Shown: positions 14,088-36,748, counted from the first letter of the stretch. The stretch: 64,000 nt of DNA from Acidobacteriota bacterium (GCA_963666055.2 CAXWPH010000012.1:384001-448000); one strand, 5' to 3'. A program made the numbers and translations. Notes: generated from the letters alone by a model not told the origin.

Positions 14088-15698
14088 GTGGATGAGGATC
14101 TCTCGATCGGCCGCAGATGGGCCTCCAAGAAGCGGCGTAAGAACGACCAGCTGCTGCGCGCGATGTTTCAGTTCATCGAGAATTCGGACGGGACCTTCCG
14201 CATCGTCTCTACAAAACACGGCAACTACGCGCTGGATGCCGAGGGGTCTGGCGGCACCAGGAAGCTCATCCTGCGGGATGTCCGGAGTGGTTCATTAGAC
14301 ACCAAGGTCGCGGGCTATCTCACCTTCGAGATAACCACCGGCAGCCCGATCGTCCTGAGCGCAACAGGACGTAAGATGGCCAAACGTCGGTCTGACTTCG
14401 GGGATGATTTCGTCGATGACCCCAGTTGGAAAACCCAGCAGGTAACTCTGCTGAACGGCAGCCTGGTACTGGAAAAAGGCGCGGGCACGCCGATGCGCTT
14501 GTACGCGGCTTCCATCGACCTGGATATCCCATTCGATTTCAACCCGGATGGAACCGAGCGCGTCAGCAACGCCGAGGCAACGCCGGTGGTCACAGAGGAC
14601 AGGGTCTCTGAGACCGCCGGCAAAGTGGTGGATAAATACCAAGCTCAGATTGCAGCGGCTGGCGCCAACGCCGGAACGTCAAGAGCAGCAGCCGCCATGC
14701 TAGCCGCAATCGAGGACGATCTTGCAGCCGAGGGTGCCCAGATGCGTTACCCCGCCGAGTTCTACATGACCTTCCGCGATGGACTCCTCGCGCGGACCCT
14801 CGAATCCTCAGAATCGACCGATGGCGTGCTCGGCCAACTCACCGTGCCGTACGTGTACTTCACCAACGAAACCGACGGTGACGGGGTCCACCATCCCTTC
14901 ATGGTGATCGCTAGTTACGGACTACCCGACAGCCTGGCACTGCTGTGGGATGTGGCAAGGCCACCGGGTGACGGTGTGGATCCTGAGTTCACGAACCAAT
15001 CAGTGACGCGCAGTTTCCACCGAGAAGGCTTTCTGACGAAGATCCCCCTGCGAGATTACGGAGAGGTCGAGAGCCTGACGGAGAATGTTATGAACGCCGA
15101 CCTCGCGAGCGACGTCGGCGTCACGGAATTCACTCACCACAACAGAACGAGCGTGTCGGCGACCGGAATGGCCATTGACGGCGTGATCATATATCCGACA
15201 TTCAACAACTCGCTGCACGTCGCGCAAGCGGACGCGGAGCTCTCGGCCCATGGTATGCACTCCGGACGCGGCCTCGGCTTGCACTATCACGCGGACGCGC
15301 ACAGCGCCAAGGGAGAAGGTCTGAATCTGTACAACGACGCGGATTACGAGGGACGTTCGCACCCTCCCATCGTCAGCATCGGTTTCGACGGTGTGGCGGG
15401 CTACGGTTTCTATCTGGCAGGTGACAGAAAGAGTGACGGAGCCAGAGTCGCCTTGGACGACTTCGGCGGGCATGAACACGGTGGCTACGCCTACCACTAC
15501 CATTCCTTCACGGCGGAGGAAGTTACCGATACTGGCGGTAGACCTGGGGACCCGCCGGGAGGAGTTCCCTACACAGCGCACATGTTGCCACCGCTCGGCG
15601 CCTGGGGGGGGCGCATTAACGACGTCCCCGAGTTCTGGGACAACAGGGCTCCGAACTTTGTCGGCGGGAATAGCGTGTTTCTCGGCACCGCGGAATAG
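14088..15698 (+). CDS. Hypothetical protein with C-terminal YHYH-like domain; 5' end possibly truncated
   Basis: G.AIDGV.IYP, LHYHAD, IGFDG, LDDFGGHEH, YAYHYH; no signal peptide or clear start. Confidence 0.6.
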   Translation: MDEDLSIGRRWASKKRRKNDQLLRAMFQFIENSDGTFRIVSTKHGNYALDAEGSGGTRKLILRDVRSGSLDTKVAGYLTFEITTGSPIVLSATGRKMAKRRSDFGDDFVDDPSWKTQQVTLLNGSLVLEKGAGTPMRLYAASIDLDIPFDFNPDGTERVSNAEATPVVTEDRVSETAGKVVDKYQAQIAAAGANAGTSRAAAAMLAAIEDDLAAEGAQMRYPAEFYMTFRDGLLARTLESSESTDGVLGQLTVPYVYFTNETDGDGVHHPFMVIASYGLPDSLALLWDVARPPGDGVDPEFTNQSVTRSFHREGFLTKIPLRDYGEVESLTENVMNADLASDVGVTEFTHHNRTSVSATGMAIDGVIIYPTFNNSLHVAQADAELSAHGMHSGRGLGLHYHADAHSAKGEGLNLYNDADYEGRSHPPIVSIGFDGVAGYGFYLAGDRKSDGARVALDDFGGHEHGGYAYHYHSFTAEEVTDTGGRPGDPPGGVPYTAHMLPPLGAWGGRINDVPEFWDNRAPNFVGGNSVFLGTAE

Positions 15699-18408: not shown

Positions 18409-18879
18409 ATGAGAGCGATGCGTTTGACGGTGTTCGCTCTGGCCACAGTTCTCTTCGGGTGTGCCCCGGATACCCCACCGACCGTGAGAATGGCCAACGT
18501 CAAGCAGCTGATGAATGCGGTGATCGAACCTGCTGCCGAGGTCTACTGGGACGCGGTGGGAACGATCATCGACGAGAACGGCATACTGGAGATCGCGCCC
18601 AGCAGCGCCGCAGAGTGGCAGGCGGTGCGCAACGCCGCCGTGGTGATGGCTGAGTCCGGCGACTTGTTGATGATGGAGAGTCGCGCCATAGACCAGGGCG
18701 CATGGACGGCCTTGTCGAGGGCGATGAGCAAGGCAGGAGGTCAGGCGCTCGAGGCGGCGGAAGCTGAGGATACAGACGCTGTCTTTGACGCCGGCGCCGA
18801 AGTCTACTACGCCTGCTCCGCTTGCCACACGGCGTACGCGCCCGAGATTCTCAGGCCAAGCGACATCCGCGACGAGTAG
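18409..18879 (+). CDS. Lipoprotein c-type cytochrome (cytochrome c'-like, C-terminal heme motif)
   Basis: Lipobox LFGC, helical sequence, CSACH near the C-terminus. Confidence 0.75.
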   Translation: MRAMRLTVFALATVLFGCAPDTPPTVRMANVKQLMNAVIEPAAEVYWDAVGTIIDENGILEIAPSSAAEWQAVRNAAVVMAESGDLLMMESRAIDQGAWTALSRAMSKAGGQALEAAEAEDTDAVFDAGAEVYYACSACHTAYAPEILRPSDIRDE

Positions 18880-18887
18880 GGACAGGA

Positions 18888-19442
18888 GTGATACTGAGTT
18901 TCCTGGAGTGGTTGGGAAGCACCAGCTGGAGCGTGGCGCTCCTGGAGTCTCTCTACGCGTGGCCGCTGCTGGAATCGACCCATGTCCTCAGCCTGGGTCT
19001 GTTTGTCGGCACCGCCGTGATGAACGATCTGCGCTTACTAGGCTGGACCATGAGGCGCGTCCCCGTTTGGGAGATCACTGGGCGGTTGCTGCCCTGGACA
19101 CGGCTAGGCTTCGTCGTGATGGTGATCACCGGGCTGCTGATCTTCTACTCCAATCCCCTCCGCTACTATCACAACATCTTCTTCCGCGTGAAGGTGGGGC
19201 TGCTGATCGTGGCTGGCCTCAACGCGTTCGTCTTCCACCGCGGAGTTCATCGAGGAGTCGCGGAGTGGGGTCGCGCGGCGCTCCCGCCGCGCCAAGCACG
19301 CGTGGCCGGTGCTGTGTCGCTTGTCGCCTGGGCGCTGATCGTCGTCACCGGGCGAATGATCGCCTACAACTGGTTCGACTGCAGCATCCAGCCGCAGGCC
19401 GACTGGGTCAACTGGGCTGCCGGATGCGTGACTCAACCCTAA
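18888..19442 (+). CDS. DUF6644 family membrane protein
   Basis: WP.LESTH.L...L..G.....DLRLLG, ITGLL.F, N.FF..K, GR.IAY. Confidence 0.7.
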   Translation: MILSFLEWLGSTSWSVALLESLYAWPLLESTHVLSLGLFVGTAVMNDLRLLGWTMRRVPVWEITGRLLPWTRLGFVVMVITGLLIFYSNPLRYYHNIFFRVKVGLLIVAGLNAFVFHRGVHRGVAEWGRAALPPRQARVAGAVSLVAWALIVVTGRMIAYNWFDCSIQPQADWVNWAAGCVTQP

Positions 19443-19505
19443 CGAGAAGTCGATTGTCCGGAATGGCGGGCTTGCTGCACCGACTGAGGGCGGGGCCGTA
19501 ACGTC

Positions 19506-19979
19506 ATGCTGCTGTGGGTGTTCGAATGGTGCGACGCTACCGCCCTGGGGGCGGCAGTCCGCAACTCGCTGTGGCTGTTTCCAGCCATCGAGGCGGTACA
19601 CTTACTCGGCCTCTCGCTGCTCGGCGGAGCGCTGCTGGTGGTGGACCTACGGCTGCTGGGGGTGGGGCTCAAGAGGCAGACGATCGCGGAGCTAGCCGAG
19701 CAGATGCGTCCGTGGCTGTTGGGCGCGCTCGTGGTGATGGGCATGACAGGACTCCTGTTGTTCCTGTCGGAAGCCATCAAGTGCTACTACAACGACGCCT
19801 TCTGGATGAAGATCACGACGCTGCCGGTGGCGCTGCTGTTCAGCTTCACCGTCCGAGCGCGCGTCGCCGGCACCGGCGGACTCGACGCCTCGATGCGCAC
19901 CCGTCTCGTCGGCGCCATCTCTATCGCGCTCTGGTTCATCGTTGCCGCGGCCGGCCGCTGGATCGGCTTCTCTGGTTAG
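19506..19979 (+). CDS. DUF6644 family membrane protein (second paralogue)
   Basis: FP.IEAVHL, DLRLLG, TGLLLF, GRWIGF. Confidence 0.7.
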   Translation: MLLWVFEWCDATALGAAVRNSLWLFPAIEAVHLLGLSLLGGALLVVDLRLLGVGLKRQTIAELAEQMRPWLLGALVVMGMTGLLLFLSEAIKCYYNDAFWMKITTLPVALLFSFTVRARVAGTGGLDASMRTRLVGAISIALWFIVAAAGRWIGFSG

Positions 19980-20021
19980 CGGTCGCTGTCCGTCGGCCTG
20001 CCAGTGTCCTCACTCAGGCCA

Positions 20022-20486
20022 CTAGCATCGCCCTCGCGCCCGCCGCTCTCGCAAGCGCTCGGCGTCGTCCGGGGCACCGGTGCCAGACGAGCCCAGGAAG
20101 ATCTTGGTGCCGTCGGCAAATGTAACGTCGCGGCCGTTCGCACGCTTGAGCGAGTGGTCCTTGGTCTGATAACCGTCGACGATGATCTCGGTGCCGTAGG
20201 TCAGGCAATCGCGTCGCAACCCGCGCCGCAGGAGCACGTTCGGTGTGCCGCCCTCTACCATCCACACCACTGTGGTGCCGTCGTCGCTGACGACCTCCAG
20301 ATGAATCCAGGAGTGGGGGTTCACCCACTCGAGCTTCACCACTTTGCCGGCGAGTCGGATCGGCGCGTCGCGGTCAAACTCGGCGCCAAAGGCATGGTGC
20401 GCCACCAGGGGTGCCGCGTACACGAGAGCTGCGAGGACCACGATGCCCCCAATCAGCGTCAGGCGTTTTGTTGGCATTGTATTCAT
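20022..20486 (-). CDS. DUF6152 family secreted protein
   Basis: Signal peptide followed by AHHAF.AEFD, W.NPH, W..E.G.P. Confidence 0.75.
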   Translation of the reverse strand: MNTMPTKRLTLIGGIVVLAALVYAAPLVAHHAFGAEFDRDAPIRLAGKVVKLEWVNPHSWIHLEVVSDDGTTVVWMVEGGTPNVLLRRGLRRDCLTYGTEIIVDGYQTKDHSLKRANGRDVTFADGTKIFLGSSGTGAPDDAERLRERRARGRC

Positions 20487-21619
20487 CTCGGCACCCTTCC
20501 TTCTTCGGCGGCTCCACGCTCTTGCGCCCGCGCGCCGATCAACACGTTGGACATCGCGTAGTTGGCCTCGTGGCAGGCGTATTCGTAGACCAGATCAGGC
20601 AGCGCCTTGAACGGTACTTGGGCAGTCCATGGACTCGAATAGAAGGCGGGATCGTCCACCGTGAACTCGTAGTTGATGGTGTGCTCATCGACGCGCGTGA
20701 ATCGCTCGGTCACCTTGAAGTGGTCGGAGCCACCGGCGAAATTGCGGTTCCCGTTGAGCTGCTTGCGCGGCAGATTCGTCGTCTCCACGACCAGCGTGTC
20801 GCCTTCCCAGCGACCCCAGGAGTCACCCAGCCAGGGGCGGATGTGCGCCGGCAGCGGCGTGCGCTCACCCAGCCTGATGATGCGCGCGTCGTGCACCATC
20901 TCGGTCATGATCATCACGTGATCGGCAGTCTGCACGATAGTGTAGTTGTTGTTGTAGAAGTAGTTGGGAATCATCGGCGGGCCGGCGTTGGAGCCGAACG
21001 ACAGGAGGCAACGCTCAGCGAGCGGCCGGTTCTCCGGGTTGTCAAAATCGCCGAACTGGGCCTGTTGCGCCTCCAACTCGCTCCGAGCCTTCTCTCCCTC
21101 GGGGCTCAACGGCGGGATGCGGCCGTCCGGCGGGTCGACAACCAGCGAGCTTCGTGGCTCGCCGTCCCAAACCGCCACGCGATCGCCCGGGTCGATGTAG
21201 AAGATGTTGTAGCCACCGGTTCCGCCGGAGGCAGCGTCGTAGAGCGCCGAGGTCTGATCGTAAAGCACCGAGGCCTCATCATCGAGCGAGTCCCCCCAGG
21301 ACACCCCCCCCACCGGCGGTGCCTCGCGATCGGGGTCGCTGTCGGCGGAGTGGATCTCGATGAACGCCGCTCGGTCGCCTTCGAGTGCCGCAACTTGCTC
21401 GGAGGTCAGCGCACGCTCGTATCCGGGCGGTCGCTCTATCAGCGTCATCGTCGCGTTGGTCCAGTTGCCCTGCAGGTCCGGATGGCCATCCGGCGTCCGG
21501 GGCAGGACCCAGGCCTGCGTGGCATCGCCCTGGGTCTGCGCGAGGGCCGGTGATGCAAGCCCCACGGCCAGCGCCACGCAGCCGATCCGCGCCAGCGAGC
21601 TTCGATTCAGAAATTCCAT
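20483..21619 (-). CDS. Secreted hypothetical protein of the DUF6152-associated family
   Basis: PRTPDGHPDLQG.W, PPDGRIP, ERC, GDS.GRWEGDTLVVET, EYACHE.N. Confidence 0.7.
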   Translation of the reverse strand: MEFLNRSSLARIGCVALAVGLASPALAQTQGDATQAWVLPRTPDGHPDLQGNWTNATMTLIERPPGYERALTSEQVAALEGDRAAFIEIHSADSDPDREAPPVGGVSWGDSLDDEASVLYDQTSALYDAASGGTGGYNIFYIDPGDRVAVWDGEPRSSLVVDPPDGRIPPLSPEGEKARSELEAQQAQFGDFDNPENRPLAERCLLSFGSNAGPPMIPNYFYNNNYTIVQTADHVMIMTEMVHDARIIRLGERTPLPAHIRPWLGDSWGRWEGDTLVVETTNLPRKQLNGNRNFAGGSDHFKVTERFTRVDEHTINYEFTVDDPAFYSSPWTAQVPFKALPDLVYEYACHEANYAMSNVLIGARAQERGAAEEGRVPR

Positions 21620-21629
21620 CCCTTTCCCC

Positions 21630-22499
21630 CTACTGACCGACCGGGTGCTTGCGAAGATGCCCGTACAGCAGCTCTTCGACAAACTCCACACACTTGAACT
21701 GACCGAGTCGGGCCTCCGGGTCGATGTTACGGTACAGCGGCATGCGGATCGTCCAAGGGCGCGAGAACGTCTGCGGATCGTCGATGGTGGCCTCGTACCA
21801 GATGTGATCGGGACTCGTCATGTTGTACCGCTCGGTTACCTTCATCGCGCCACTGTGGTGGTTTCCCGCCCGGTCGAACCACGTCTGTTCGATCAAGCCG
21901 GTAACCTCCACGACGAACACATCGCCCTCCCATTGGCCCACCGATTGGCCCATCCAGGAGTCGATCTGCGCCGGGCCCGGGTCTGTGAGATAGATGTCGC
22001 GAACGGCCCCGGCGTACTCGTAGGCGATGAAGAACTTGCTTTCGCTCTGGAAGACTTGAAACGAATGCTGCATGTAGTTGGCCCGCGGCACCCCTGGTAG
22101 ATAGCACTTGATCTCGGGGTCGCGGTCGACCCAGTTGGCGCGATTCTCATTGCGCTTGGCGAGCGCCTCCGGCAGGTAAGGAATCTCACCACCGACGACC
22201 ACACCCTGACCGGAGGGCACGGCGCCGACCGCGCCGAACGCCAGCACCTCGTTCGCCGGCACCGGCACCACCGGACCTGGCTGCAGGGCCAGCGCCGGTC
22301 GGGCCAGATGCGGCTCGATGTCCCAATGCGCGTTGCCCAGCGCCTGCCAGATGCCGTTCATATCGGGCTTGCCTGAGGCGGTTCTGGGAATCTCGGTGCC
22401 CTGAGCGCACCCATAGCTAGCCAACGTTGCAGCTACAAGCAATGTGCCGACGACAGCCCTGCCCACGACACGTACTGGCGATTCAAAGCCGCTCGACAT
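21630..22499 (-). CDS. Secreted/lipoprotein hypothetical protein, paralogue of 20483-21619
   Basis: PRTASGKPD.NGIW, DPEIKC.LPG.PR, G.S.G.WEGD, DDP..F..PW, C-terminal FKC.E. Confidence 0.7.
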   Translation of the reverse strand: MSSGFESPVRVVGRAVVGTLLVAATLASYGCAQGTEIPRTASGKPDMNGIWQALGNAHWDIEPHLARPALALQPGPVVPVPANEVLAFGAVGAVPSGQGVVVGGEIPYLPEALAKRNENRANWVDRDPEIKCYLPGVPRANYMQHSFQVFQSESKFFIAYEYAGAVRDIYLTDPGPAQIDSWMGQSVGQWEGDVFVVEVTGLIEQTWFDRAGNHHSGAMKVTERYNMTSPDHIWYEATIDDPQTFSRPWTIRMPLYRNIDPEARLGQFKCVEFVEELLYGHLRKHPVGQ

Positions 22500-22544: not shown

Positions 22545-23096
22545 TCATTCACCACGAGCGCCAAACGCCAGCAGAACGTTCCCTGCCATCTGTCCGAAGG
22601 AACCATACCCGCTGTTGACGAAGACGAGCCCGGCGGCGACTACCGGCCCGGGGCCGTCGATGGCGCCACCGTTCCCCGGCACGCCGTTCATTGTTTCGAA
22701 CTCACGTACGGTGTCATACTCCCACAGCGTACTCCCGTCTTCCGTAGAATGCGCCCGAATATGCCCGTCCAATCCGCCCGCGAAGACGACCCCGGGAATC
22801 ACGGTTGGAGCGGCGGAGTTTGCCGCGAAACAGCCTTGTTTACCAGCGCAGGTATCCGTTGACGCCTTGGCGCTCCACGCGACATCACCCGTCATCAGGT
22901 CGAGGGCATAGAGGCCCGGAGTGAGCTGCTGCTCGGGGTTGACATCGACGATCACGACCCCGGGTCGATCCGAGTTAGCGGCAAAGACCAGCTGCCCATC
23001 GGTCGCCATGCCCCAGTGGATGCCACCCAGCGCGCTCCCCTTCCCCACCCGTGTAGACCATAGGACTTCCCCGCCGGCGTCTGGATCGAGGGGCAA
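22545..23096 (-). pseudogene. C-terminal fragment of a PQQ-dependent (polyvinyl-alcohol dehydrogenase-like) beta-propeller
   Basis: GG.HWG.A.DG, ALD..TG...W, GGAIDG.GP, NSGYG..G..GNVLLAF; N-terminal part missing. Confidence 0.7.
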
Positions 23097-23222
23097 GACG
23101 GCATCTGCTGCGCGGCCAGTGTGCTAGCCCAACTCCGCACCTGCAAGGGAACCTCCGTTCCGTCGATGTCCGGGCTAGTCTGGACAGGTCTGGTAGAACG
23201 ACACACGGAGGAGGCTCATAGG

Positions 23223-34787: not shown

Positions 34788-35956
34788 GGAACCTCTGATC
34801 AATTCGGGTTCGATGGGATAATGCACGCGGATCCGATCACGCCGCCAGAGGGAGAAGGGAATGCGCCAGCAGACGCTTGCCGAAGGGTCCTTTGAGCAGT
34901 ACCGGAAGGTGACCCGCCGGGAGCGGTTCCTGGCAGAGATGGATCAGGTGGTGCCGTGGGCCCAGCTGTGCGCTTTGATCGAGCCGGTGTATCCGAAGCC
35001 GAAGGGAGCGGGACGGCGCCCAGTCGGGCTGGAGAGGATGCTGCGCATCTACTTCATGCAGCAGTGGTTCAACCTGTCGGACCCGGGGGTGGAGGAGGCG
35101 CTGTACGACTCGCGGGCGATGCGTGCCTTCGTGGGGATCGATCTGGGACGGGAGCCGGCGCCGGACGAGACGACGGTGTGCAAGTTCCGGCACCTTCTGG
35201 AGACCCACGAGCTGGGCGTGCAGGTGTTCCACATCGTTGCCGAGCACCTGCAGGGGCGGGGGCTGAAGGTCAGCACGGGCACCATCGTCGACGCGACGAT
35301 CATCACCGCCCCGTCATCGACCAAGAACAAGGCCAAGCAGCGGGATCCGGAGATGCGCTCGACCAAGAAGGGCAACCAATGGTACTTCGGGATGAAGGGA
35401 CACTTCGGTGTGGACAGCAAATCCAAGCTCATTCACTCGGTCGTGGCCACCGCCGCCAATGTCCATGACAGCCAGGTGCTAGAGGATCTGCTGCATGGGC
35501 AGGAGACGCGGGTGTGGGGAGACAGCGCTTATACGGGCCGACGGGAGGTCATTGTCCGGTGTGCTCCCGGTGCCAAGGACTTCACCAACAAGAAAGGGCA
35601 CCGTCACCGGCCACTGACCGAGCGAGACCGAGCTCGAAACCGCACCAAGTCGAAGGTGCGGGCCAAAGTCGAGCACCCGATGCTGGTGATCAAGCGCATC
35701 TTCGGCTTCAGAAAGGTCCGATACCGAGGGCTCCACAAGAACGCGCACCGGCTCTTCGTGACCTGCGCGTTGGCCAACCTATTCATGGCACGCAAGGTGC
35801 TGCTCGCGCACACCTGAAACAGGCACCCTGAGAGGCCGCCGTCGCGGTTGAACCCGTCGGCAGCAGCTCGGAGGGCGACTGCATTCCCACCCTCATGCCG
35901 ACCAGTTCCTCCAATCAGGCTCCATCCTGACTGACGGCCAATTGATCAGACCTTCC
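34788..35956 (+). mobile_element. IS5 family element, apparently intact
   Basis: TIRs GGAACCTCTGATCAAT / ATTGATCAGACCTTCC, TTAA on both sides. Confidence 0.92.
34861..35817 (+). CDS. IS5 family transposase
   Basis: TRRE.FL.EM..VVPW, QQWFNLSD, PDETT..KFRHLLE, VDATII, QWYFGMK.H.GVD, VEHP. Confidence 0.95.
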   Translation: MRQQTLAEGSFEQYRKVTRRERFLAEMDQVVPWAQLCALIEPVYPKPKGAGRRPVGLERMLRIYFMQQWFNLSDPGVEEALYDSRAMRAFVGIDLGREPAPDETTVCKFRHLLETHELGVQVFHIVAEHLQGRGLKVSTGTIVDATIITAPSSTKNKAKQRDPEMRSTKKGNQWYFGMKGHFGVDSKSKLIHSVVATAANVHDSQVLEDLLHGQETRVWGDSAYTGRREVIVRCAPGAKDFTNKKGHRHRPLTERDRARNRTKSKVRAKVEHPMLVIKRIFGFRKVRYRGLHKNAHRLFVTCALANLFMARKVLLAHT

Positions 35957-36748
35957 TTAACCCGCAGGCTGGCACAGTTCGGCGATGAGGAACGACCGGC
36001 AGCGCTACCATCGACATCCCGTTCCGCCAGAGATCATCAGCCACGCCGTGTGGCTATATCACCGCTTCTGCCTGAGCTTGCGCGACGTCGAGGATCTCTT
36101 GGCGCAGCGAGGAGTGACCGTTTCGCATGAAGCGATCCGGTGTTGGTGCGCCAAGTTCGGGACCATCTACGCGGCCAAGCTACGGCGGCGGCAAGGTCGA
36201 CTCGGCGACACCTGGTTATTGGACGAGGTCTTCGTAAGCATCAGCGGCCAGCGGCACTACCTGTGGCGTGCCGTTGACCAGGCTGGTGATCTTCTCGATA
36301 TCCTGCTCCAACGCCGACGAAACGCCCGCGCTGCAAGGCGATTCTTTCGCAAGCTGCTGGAGGGGCAAGGGACGGTGCCGCGGCGGTTGGTCACCGACAA
36401 GCTCCGAAGCTACGCTGCAGCCCACCGCTCGGTCATGCCGTCAGTCGTTCACGAGACCAGGCGCTATGCGAACAACCTAGCGGAGGTGTCGCACCAACCA
36501 AGTCGTCAACGCGAGAGACAGATGCGCAGATTCAAGTCCGTGGCTCACGCATAGCGGTTTCTGTCCGTGCACGGGGCCGTCCGGAATCTCTTCAACTTGA
36601 GCCGACACCGACTACGATCCGCGAACTACCGGGTGCTTCGGACTCGCGCCTTTGGAACCTGGAGCGAGGTAGTTGCCGCCTAAGGCGACCCGGCTCCAGG
36701 CCGCACCTTGCCCGAATCCGAGCGTCGCGTCATTAACTTGACAGTACC
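35957..36748 (+). mobile_element. IS6 family element; left TIR truncated by IS5, transposase has a premature TAG
   Basis: PPEIISHAVWLY.RF.LS.RDVE, DEVFV, YLWRAVD, TDKL.SY; TAG at 36552-36554, frame continues to 36683; right TIR AACTTGACAGTACC. Confidence 0.9.

Follow-up and report, generated by a model that had tools for sequence, protein, structure and literature searches.

What do the six genes do that lie between positions 18,409 and 22,499 of a 64,000-nucleotide stretch of DNA from an Acidobacteriota bacterium (GCA_963666055.2 CAXWPH010000012.1:384001-448000; this whole stretch is called the window below)? A first-pass annotation had described them as an envelope redox or metal module, in which a cytochrome c and two DUF6644 membrane proteins converge on a DUF6152 protein and two secreted paralogues. 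We found that the six genes, here named G1 to G6, are one co-inherited system that is kept together in three phyla. As to what the system does, the reading that we prefer, with slightly less than even confidence, is a redox enzyme of the periplasm that depends on a metal, probably copper, and is supplied by a membrane heterodimer and a cytochrome. The annotation had stated that no function was described for such a module, and we found no description either: no paper in the literature searched, where few subscription papers and bioRxiv supplements were covered, named DUF6152 or DUF6644 or joined a histidine brace with an oligonucleotide/oligosaccharide-binding (OB) fold in the periplasm.

Six genes inherited together

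The annotated layout was borne out, with all six open reading frames (ORFs) in place and arranged as two convergent runs, G1 to G3 on the plus strand facing G6, G5 and G4 on the minus strand. Chance ORFs or artefacts were ruled out by the codon composition (a GC content of 0.73–0.87 at third positions versus 0.45–0.50 at second positions), by recurrence in related loci and by the conservation of residues. G2 starts with GTG, preceded by AGGAG; the stop codon of G5 overlaps the start of G4, and G6 sits just upstream of G5 in most loci. Scans for promoters and terminators gave chance-level results only. Pfam assigned DUF6644 to G2 (44 bits) and G3 (95 bits) and DUF6152 to G4 (100 bits), while G1 matched cytochrome c' below the cut-off (21.8 bits against the 26.5 needed), G5 and G6 had no Pfam match and none of the six matched an NCBIfam model above its cut-off. 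The motifs singled out by the annotation, HH and NPH in G4, ExxH in both membrane proteins, ERC...YACHE and IKC...FKC in the secreted paralogues and a C-terminal CxxCH in the cytochrome, were all present in the translations.

Co-occurrence across gene neighbourhoods had been proposed as a check on the module, and it was found at two scales. A scan with G4 hit 493 related stretches; the counts that follow cover the best 78 loci of these, a selection in which close relatives are over-represented. The full set of six genes occurred in 51 of the 78 loci, and in 46 of the 57 that had at least 2.5 kb on both sides. Counted singly, G5 was present in 73 loci, G6 in 68, G1 in 63, G3 in 61, G2 in 57 and the gene of a pyrroloquinoline quinone (PQQ) quinohaemoprotein in 15; G1 was also present in seven loci showing no DUF6644. 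The convergent arrangement was common but not fixed (L033, L047 and L050 are examples of exceptions). Among 151 genomes of the phylum that were at least 90% complete, we found DUF6152 in 14, DUF6644 in 15 (13 above the cut-off), the barrel family of G5 and G6 in 14 and the cytochrome in 13. The identical 13 genomes held all four families, and 135 held none; the exceptions were genome G153, with a weak adjacent DUF6152 and DUF6644 only, genome G005, with barrels only, and genome G079, with one weak DUF6644. The closest named relatives of the module are metagenome-assembled genomes of Acidobacteriota and Gemmatimonadota, and plasmid records extend the system to cultured Alphaproteobacteria, where the four families are neighbours in Novosphingobium humi KACC 19094 (PQ457_RS21820, 21825, 21835, 21840, 21845; cytochrome match E 3e-21).

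The families differ in copy number. DUF6152 reached 11–16 copies, and up to at least 30 scored copies, in four genomes, and the top carriers had at least 14–15 barrel paralogues each. DUF6644 was found in 2–6 copies per genome, nearly always as tandem pairs, and the cytochrome in 1–4 copies. As the copies of DUF6152 and the barrel far exceed those of DUF6644 and the cytochrome, the numbers suggest many substrate-specific periplasmic units that operate on few membrane hubs. In the source genome there are a single DUF6152, a single DUF6644 pair and a single cytochrome, along with at least six extra G5-type genes and a broken G6–G5 copy.

The predicted His-tipped subunit and the barrel proteins

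G4 (20022..20486, minus strand) encodes 154 residues with a signal peptide over residues 1–29. The annotation had the mature chain begin with two histidines directly behind this peptide, and the sequences around the site agree with it. In 74 orthologues, a set that excludes loci L001–L009, L017 and L018 and chains under 75% of the length, His1, His2 and His29 (mature numbering; His29 lies in NPH) were invariant. The residue at –1 to His1 was Ala or Gly in all 74, with L, V, A, I or T at –3, a Pro at –6 to –4 in 53 and a hydrophobic core. Among 47 divergent DUF6152 copies from five other genomes (18–83% identity), the three histidines were kept in 47/47, Glu49 in 44 and Ala at –1 in 39, and His33 was not conserved; the 11 alphaproteobacterial proteins all begin with HH after an Ala at the predicted site. 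By these residue rules, mature G4 is predicted to begin His-His behind a signal-peptidase-type site. Twin-arginine export was rejected, its motif being found in only 1/74, 3/81 and 0/69 of the sequences.

The annotation had compared G4 with His-brace proteins, among them CopC and the lytic polysaccharide monooxygenases (LPMOs), but the scaffold of these two did not hold up for G4. The model of G4, with a predicted local distance difference test score (pLDDT) of 84.5, is an OB-fold: the best match had Z 8.3 and a root-mean-square deviation (rmsd) of 3.0 over 86 residues, OB domains filled both match lists and a search of a viral fold library with the model gave the OB-fold again. Membership of DUF6152 in the LPMO or CopC families was rejected, as the model is an OB-fold and not a beta-sandwich and only DUF6152 matches in Pfam; a sequence search of known structures gave no solved homologue. 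Since residues 1–3 are poorly placed, the models give no geometry for the His site. At three loci (L111, L134 and L144) a minimal DUF6152 of HHGW type accompanies a single DUF6644 without barrel or cytochrome; this pair is perhaps the ancestral, CopCD-like form.

G5 (20483..21619, minus strand; 378 residues) is a secreted barrel protein with Cys204 and Cys349, and G6 (21630..22499, minus strand; 289 residues) represents a second subtype of the same family with Cys132 and Cys270. The two are indeed paralogues, as annotated: they are 37% identical over 117 residues, and their profiles match with a probability of 99.95%. The family of G5 comprises 13,260 clusters at 50% identity, yet no Pfam match better than E 0.03 was found in 141 members and no sequence match among solved structures. 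The G5 model (pLDDT 88, predicted template-modelling score 0.88) contains a barrel like those of calycins and fatty-acid-binding proteins (FABP), with a middling score (best Z 8.2, rmsd 3.9 over 118 residues). The top fold matches were FABP and cellular retinol-binding proteins, luciferase, nitrobindin and bilin lyase, with rmsd 3.5–3.9 over ~120 of 351 residues. Barrels of this type are up-and-down beta-barrels marked by GxW in the first strand. In 71 divergent barrels, the two cysteines were kept in 70 and 69, Arg246 in 67, Gly51 in 69 and Trp53 in 61, along with the Pro positions of the barrel; Glu240, kept in 43, and the two histidines were subtype-specific. The Cys pairs noted in the annotation are thus family-wide, whereas the His of YACHE is limited to the G5 subtype, and a disulfide is the more likely role of the cysteines than a metal site.

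We predicted the complex in one job, with G5 and G6 together and G4 as the partner. The score was 0.76, against 0.00 for the best control, with at least 76% contact agreement between runs and a partner pLDDT of at least 73; in the calibration, 116 of 157 solved pairs and 2 of 215 mismatched ones came up to the score mark, counts that are only rough for a job of this composition. Nearly all predicted contacts of G4 fall on G5, and the predicted interface places NPH, Glu49 and Asn54 of G4 beside Cys204, Tyr222, Asn223, Glu240 and the YEYAC-E-N segment of G5. When G5 was swapped out, G4 with G6 scored 0.00, giving no support for this pair and no evidence against binding either. As a prediction, the annotated complex of a small and a large subunit was retained for G4 and G5, for which there are also natural fusions, and gained no support for G6. 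Clean fusions, in the order signal peptide, HH, DUF6152 and barrel with both cysteines, made up 4 of the 26 longer DUF6152 matches (P0142–P0145), and a barrel gene lay at most 1.5 kb from the DUF6152 gene in 38 of 47 cases. Longer matches in which G5-like pieces stand upstream appear to be read-throughs of frameshifts and did not count as fusions.

The six lone barrel paralogues of the source genome keep 17–26 of 29 core interface residues, for which reason they may share the single G4 by the predicted contact. They lie on G000 C15 and C5, near transporters, hydrolases and PQQ genes, and the broken copy (a 3' piece of G6 and a frameshifted G5) is at G000 C13:56090-57473. Two records show DUF6152 fused to a DUF3089-type (PF11288) hydrolase, and in a third such a hydrolase is apparently fused to a G5-type barrel (P0124, P0126, P0147).

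The membrane pair and the cytochrome

G2 (18888..19442, plus strand; 184 residues) and G3 (19506..19979, plus strand; 157 residues) are paralogues with 33–35% identity, and each has four hydrophobic segments that are predicted helices. G2 belongs to a subtype with an extra His117 and a C-terminal Cys165/Cys180 pair, the latter found in 55 of 57 orthologues and absent from most divergent DUF6644 proteins. Its invariant residues are Trp8, His32, Gly41, Arg49, Lys102 and Arg156, and across 19 divergent DUF6644 proteins Trp8, His32, Gly41, Arg49, Gly52, Gly82, Lys102 and Arg151 were invariant (19/19); the 11 alphaproteobacterial copies keep His and Lys in all. The ExxH motif of the annotation does occur in the first helix of both proteins, but its Glu was found in only 8 of the 19 divergent proteins, in contrast to His and Lys in all 19. 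The positive-inside rule would bring Trp8, His32, Lys102 and Arg151 together on the periplasmic side, an arrangement that suits haem b or a metal ion.

Of the two affinities that the annotation had offered for DUF6644, CopD-like or cytochrome b-like, the former gained from profile comparison. Aligned with hhalign, DUF6644 matched single-domain CopD-like proteins with a probability of 80% and a score of 38 (at most 26 in 40 block shuffles) and, more weakly, the C-terminal repeat of CopD with 23% and a score of 28 (at most 20 in 40 block shuffles). Both matches also exceed reversed controls and have His32, Gly82 and Lys102 in register; a Pfam match to CopD was obtained for 1 of 59 DUF6644 members (E 0.0035). 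DUF6644 thus appears to be a remote four-helix relative within the CopD clan, in which His32 and Lys102 correspond to the His of CopD-type helix 1 and the Lys of helix 3. Its genes nearly always form tandem pairs, and G2 and G3 are likely a heterodimer in the inner membrane. Identity with an eight-helix CopD, which has both conserved histidines (135 and 154 in YebZ) in one chain, was rejected on the chain lengths, the four hydrophobic segments and the one universal His per chain. A sequence search of solved structures gave no match for DUF6644, and the ESM Atlas no usable match for G3. HemJ (UPF0093), a precedent for the haem b option, ligates its haem by His and Lys; the 59 DUF6644 members had no match to this family, and true HemJ was not found in 121 genomes of the phylum. 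Nine of the 14 genomes with DUF6152 have a separate CopD-domain gene, as does the source genome, and the complementary distribution of CopD and DUF6644 expected if the latter had replaced the former was not seen. The source genome copy (G000 C14:374318-375217) encodes 300 residues, and the ORFs listed up to 3 kb away include no CopC.

G1 (18409..18879, plus strand; 156 residues) is a predicted lipoprotein with the sequence LFGC at Cys18 and the haem motif C136xxC139H140. The annotated cytochrome with a single C-terminal CxxCH could be further classified: 50 of 65 members of the family match PF01322 at E up to 0.1, and the best solved-structure matches of G1 are cytochromes c' (E 3e-4, with the N-terminal part unaligned). 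Judged by sequence, G1 is a class II cytochrome c of the c'/c-556 type, with CxxCH at the C-terminal end of a helical bundle. Family conservation was high for Met35 (78/79) and CxxCH (78–79 of 79) and lower for Cys18 (66/79); Met35 was also kept in 7/7 further sequences and is present in N. humi. In c-556 and b562, the sixth haem ligand is a Met near the N-terminus. Met35, which stands 101 residues before the first haem Cys, is likely the sixth ligand of G1 by this analogy, and its place favours a low-spin carrier of electrons over a c' of the gas-binding kind. A literature search on the ligation of c-556 found nothing relevant. In eleven loci (L035, L040, L048, L052, L054, L055, L058, L063, L065, L067 and L072), a second, divergent cytochrome copy (~30% identity) faces the first.

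Function, known systems and gene context

In the enzyme reading, G4 as the OB-fold subunit would hold the metal via His1, His2, His29 and Glu49 and dock on the barrel of G5, which would bind the substrate. Electrons would pass from quinol to the G2–G3 pair, on to G1 and from there to the metal site, where a small organic substrate would be oxygenated or reduced. The PQQ quinohaemoprotein would be an optional second electron donor, and one or a few membrane wires would serve many pairs of a small subunit and a barrel that differ in their pockets. We infer that the G2–G3 pair has, on its periplasmic side, a His/Lys site for haem b or a metal and that G1 is His/Met-ligated; if the pair holds haem b and G1 is so ligated, the path from quinol to the metal site would be downhill for electrons, a direction that we moderately favour over the reverse. 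A redox function is preferred mainly because the cytochrome co-occurs strictly, being found only in those 13 of the 151 genomes that have the full system. A cytochrome domain together with a PQQ enzyme driving a His-brace enzyme has a precedent (PMC5960967). Copper seems rather more probable than nickel, iron and cobalt together; it is likely but not certain because a His1 site can prefer nickel, according to the parts covered of PMC12537917. As a whole, the interpretation of the first-pass annotation was kept for the single system, the His pair, the complex and the CopD kinship, and changed for the scaffold, the large partner (G5, with no support for G6), the Cys pair, which is more likely a disulfide, and the ExxH motif, for which His and Lys are the conserved residues.

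A more far-reaching form of this reading, which we consider doubtful, is a widespread and so far undescribed class of modular periplasmic copper oxygenases with an N-terminal three-His site on an OB-fold, interchangeable barrels that set the substrate range and dozens of pairs per genome. These would draw electrons from the quinone pool via one split CopD-clan haem protein and a lipoprotein cytochrome. If true, the class would be a periplasmic counterpart of the P450 expansions in Acidobacteriota, Gemmatimonadota and sphingomonads and offer a new His-brace scaffold.

Several observations weigh against the enzyme. His1 and His2 have a pLDDT below 50 in the single-chain model of G4 and are not among the confident interface contacts, and neither is His350 of G5; conservation at the predicted interface was not enriched compared with the rest (0.50/0.47, 0.30/0.35 and 0.55/0.54). 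At L111, L131, L134 and L144, a DUF6152 gene directly adjoins a DUF6644 gene and has no barrel gene next to it, a layout like that of CopCD, and the six barrel paralogues of the source genome have no adjoining DUF6152. The cytochrome family is absent from 6 of 7 alphaproteobacterial loci, within the stretch fetched. The 13 carrier genomes belong to four taxonomic families, with five in one genus, and so do not stand for 13 independent events. No particular substrate stands out, and the newly described N-terminal-His proteins are, in the sections covered, metal binders with little activity (PMC12537917). Finally, two histidines near the periplasmic side of YebZ matter for copper uptake and His154 is needed (PMC11923076, as covered in part); by alignment, His32 of DUF6644 would be the second YebZ His, the one needed.

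The last point belongs to the main rival, which we hold to be unlikely, a metal uptake or delivery system resembling CopCD. DUF6152 would capture Cu(II) or Ni(II) with its N-terminal His site and pass it to the DUF6644 pair, equivalent to one eight-helix CopD; the barrels would import chelated metal, and the cytochrome would reduce the metal ahead of its transfer. Besides the match to the CopD profile with His, Gly and Lys in register and the YebZ result, its best evidence is the minimal DUF6152 and DUF6644 pairs without a barrel, and it fits the three flanking sensor kinases that best match a heavy-metal family below the cut-off (274, 275 and 220 against 293 bits) and the HupE/UreJ genes that adjoin two loci. 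Yet the uptake of one metal hardly accounts for as many as thirty paralogues whose barrels have diverged, the genomes named above have a CopD-domain gene in addition, and the upstream TGH-type His of eight-helix CopDs is absent from both subunits. Among 139 scanned neighbours (130 of the 240 unannotated ORFs in the flanks of divergent loci, plus 9 that represent the core loci), there was no copper ATPase, multicopper oxidase or Cus efflux family, and neither these nor the six genes had a CopC match. CopCD systems are also not known to have a dedicated cytochrome.

An excess of barrels over DUF6152 in the source genome (at least 8 to 1) would suit the capture and release of ligands, in which barrels bind organic ligands or metallophores arriving via TonB-dependent receptors and the His-tipped subunit and cytochrome strip or sense the load without turnover. 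TonB-type receptors do flank many divergent loci and the barrel is similar to calycins that bind lipids and tetrapyrroles (best Z 8.2), but none of the families that recur next to the six-gene core in the 78 closest loci is a receptor family, a Z of about 8 may reflect a mere common arrangement, and calycin barrels are also enzymes, as in the luciferase, lyase and cyclase matches; we regard this explanation as improbable. Very unlikely in our view is a repair or thiol-redox system like MsrPQ or DsbD, with a redox-active barrel Cys pair recharged from the membrane pair. The two near-invariant cysteines of every barrel subtype, both at the predicted G4 interface, the further Cys pair on G2 and the peroxiredoxin or redoxin genes beside two sphingomonad loci speak for it. 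The barrel cysteines, however, are ~140 residues apart and form no CxxC, as for a structural disulfide in a secreted protein, the Cys pair of G2 is not general in DUF6644, and the invariant N-terminal His pair is left unexplained.

The module falls outside LPMO, CopC and eight-helix CopD memberships, though it would work like parts of each. With the LPMOs driven by cellobiose dehydrogenase or the PQQ pyranose dehydrogenase CcPDH, the module shares a secreted protein with His1 after (predicted) signal cleavage and a further conserved His, and a cytochrome and, at some loci, a PQQ quinohaemoprotein as partners (PMC10952591, PMC5960967); the LPMOs differ in having an immunoglobulin-like fold instead of an OB-fold with His1-His2, His29 and Glu49, and the module adds a separate barrel and a membrane pair and has no sign of a polysaccharide substrate. 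CopC–CopD, YobA–YebZ–YebY of E. coli and YcnJ–YcnI of B. subtilis likewise combine a periplasmic N-terminal-His protein with a CopD-clan membrane protein that has a periplasmic-side His (PMC11923076, PMC13344008, each covered in part). DUF6152 is nevertheless not CopC by sequence or fold, and the module has a pair of four-helix genes whose products both carry His, Lys, Trp and Arg, as well as barrels, a dedicated cytochrome, paralogue expansions and a coexisting CopD-domain gene. In the signal-strapped proteins DUF4198, DUF6702, Ang-1 and Ang-2, His1 is also exposed by cleavage, and Ang-1 and Ang-2 are tied to a membrane permease; these proteins are beta-sandwiches where the fold is stated, bind Ni (DUF4198) or Cu (anglerases) and, in the sections covered, have no barrel or cytochrome partner (PMC12537917). 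DUF6152 is not named in the text of that paper or in the supplements searched. With HemJ and four-helix haem b membrane proteins such as MsrQ, DUF6644 shares the small four-helix form and the helix-1 His and helix-3 Lys, but it lacks the HemJ family match and is likely a heterodimer. G1 is like the class II cytochromes c (c' and low-spin c-556) in its four-helix type and C-terminal CxxCH, and unlike them in being a lipoprotein below the Pfam cut-off, with its Met far ahead of the haem motif.

With a barrel family that has no Pfam model and the many DUF6152 copies in some genomes, the function concerns a visible share of the envelope genes in little-studied lineages. An enzyme would extend N-terminal-His metal chemistry to a new fold and add a membrane electron conduit from the CopD clan that is likewise new, and a transporter would bear on the working of four-helix CopD-like proteins. 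Either way, the module can be tested directly, as its parts are listed, a contact is predicted and N. humi is a carrier in culture.

Beyond G6 lies the 3' stump of the PQQ quinohaemoprotein gene (22545..23117, minus strand), which encodes the last 190 of about 630 residues. It is 73–79% identical to whole copies in three relatives, and in many relatives the gene is whole and co-directional with G6. A GFA-family gene occupies the place of its 5' two thirds, and the source genome has six other full-length PQQ homologues at about 33–35% identity. Scanned neighbours with a family match included TonB-type receptors, esterases, amidohydrolases, sulfatases, PQQ proteins, lipocalin-like proteins, aromatic and acyl-CoA enzymes and many unrelated ones; in N. 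humi, the flanking genes hint at acyl-CoA and aromatic substrates. A family of secreted CxxCH proteins with HH, HxH and DEM/EEM motifs but no Pfam match flanks 8 core loci (L030:8761-10116 and seven others), and we take it to resemble peptidylglycine-type copper monooxygenases. OmpR-type two-component systems with a heavy-metal family as best match, below the cut-off, stand next to a lone DUF6152 or the module at L106, L127, L062 and L073. On a plasmid of Sphingobium sp. TomTYG65 (L145), the module is inside a sulfur-scavenging cluster with a sulfonate monooxygenase, TauD, a sulfurtransferase, a TonB receptor and a peroxiredoxin, a context that is a possible clue to the substrate. Elsewhere in the window, a 536-residue ORF at 14088-15698 (plus strand) has a His-rich C-terminal part with HxH motifs and no Pfam match, and at 34861-36554 there are two ORFs whose N-termini are presumably IS5- and IS6-type transposase-like.

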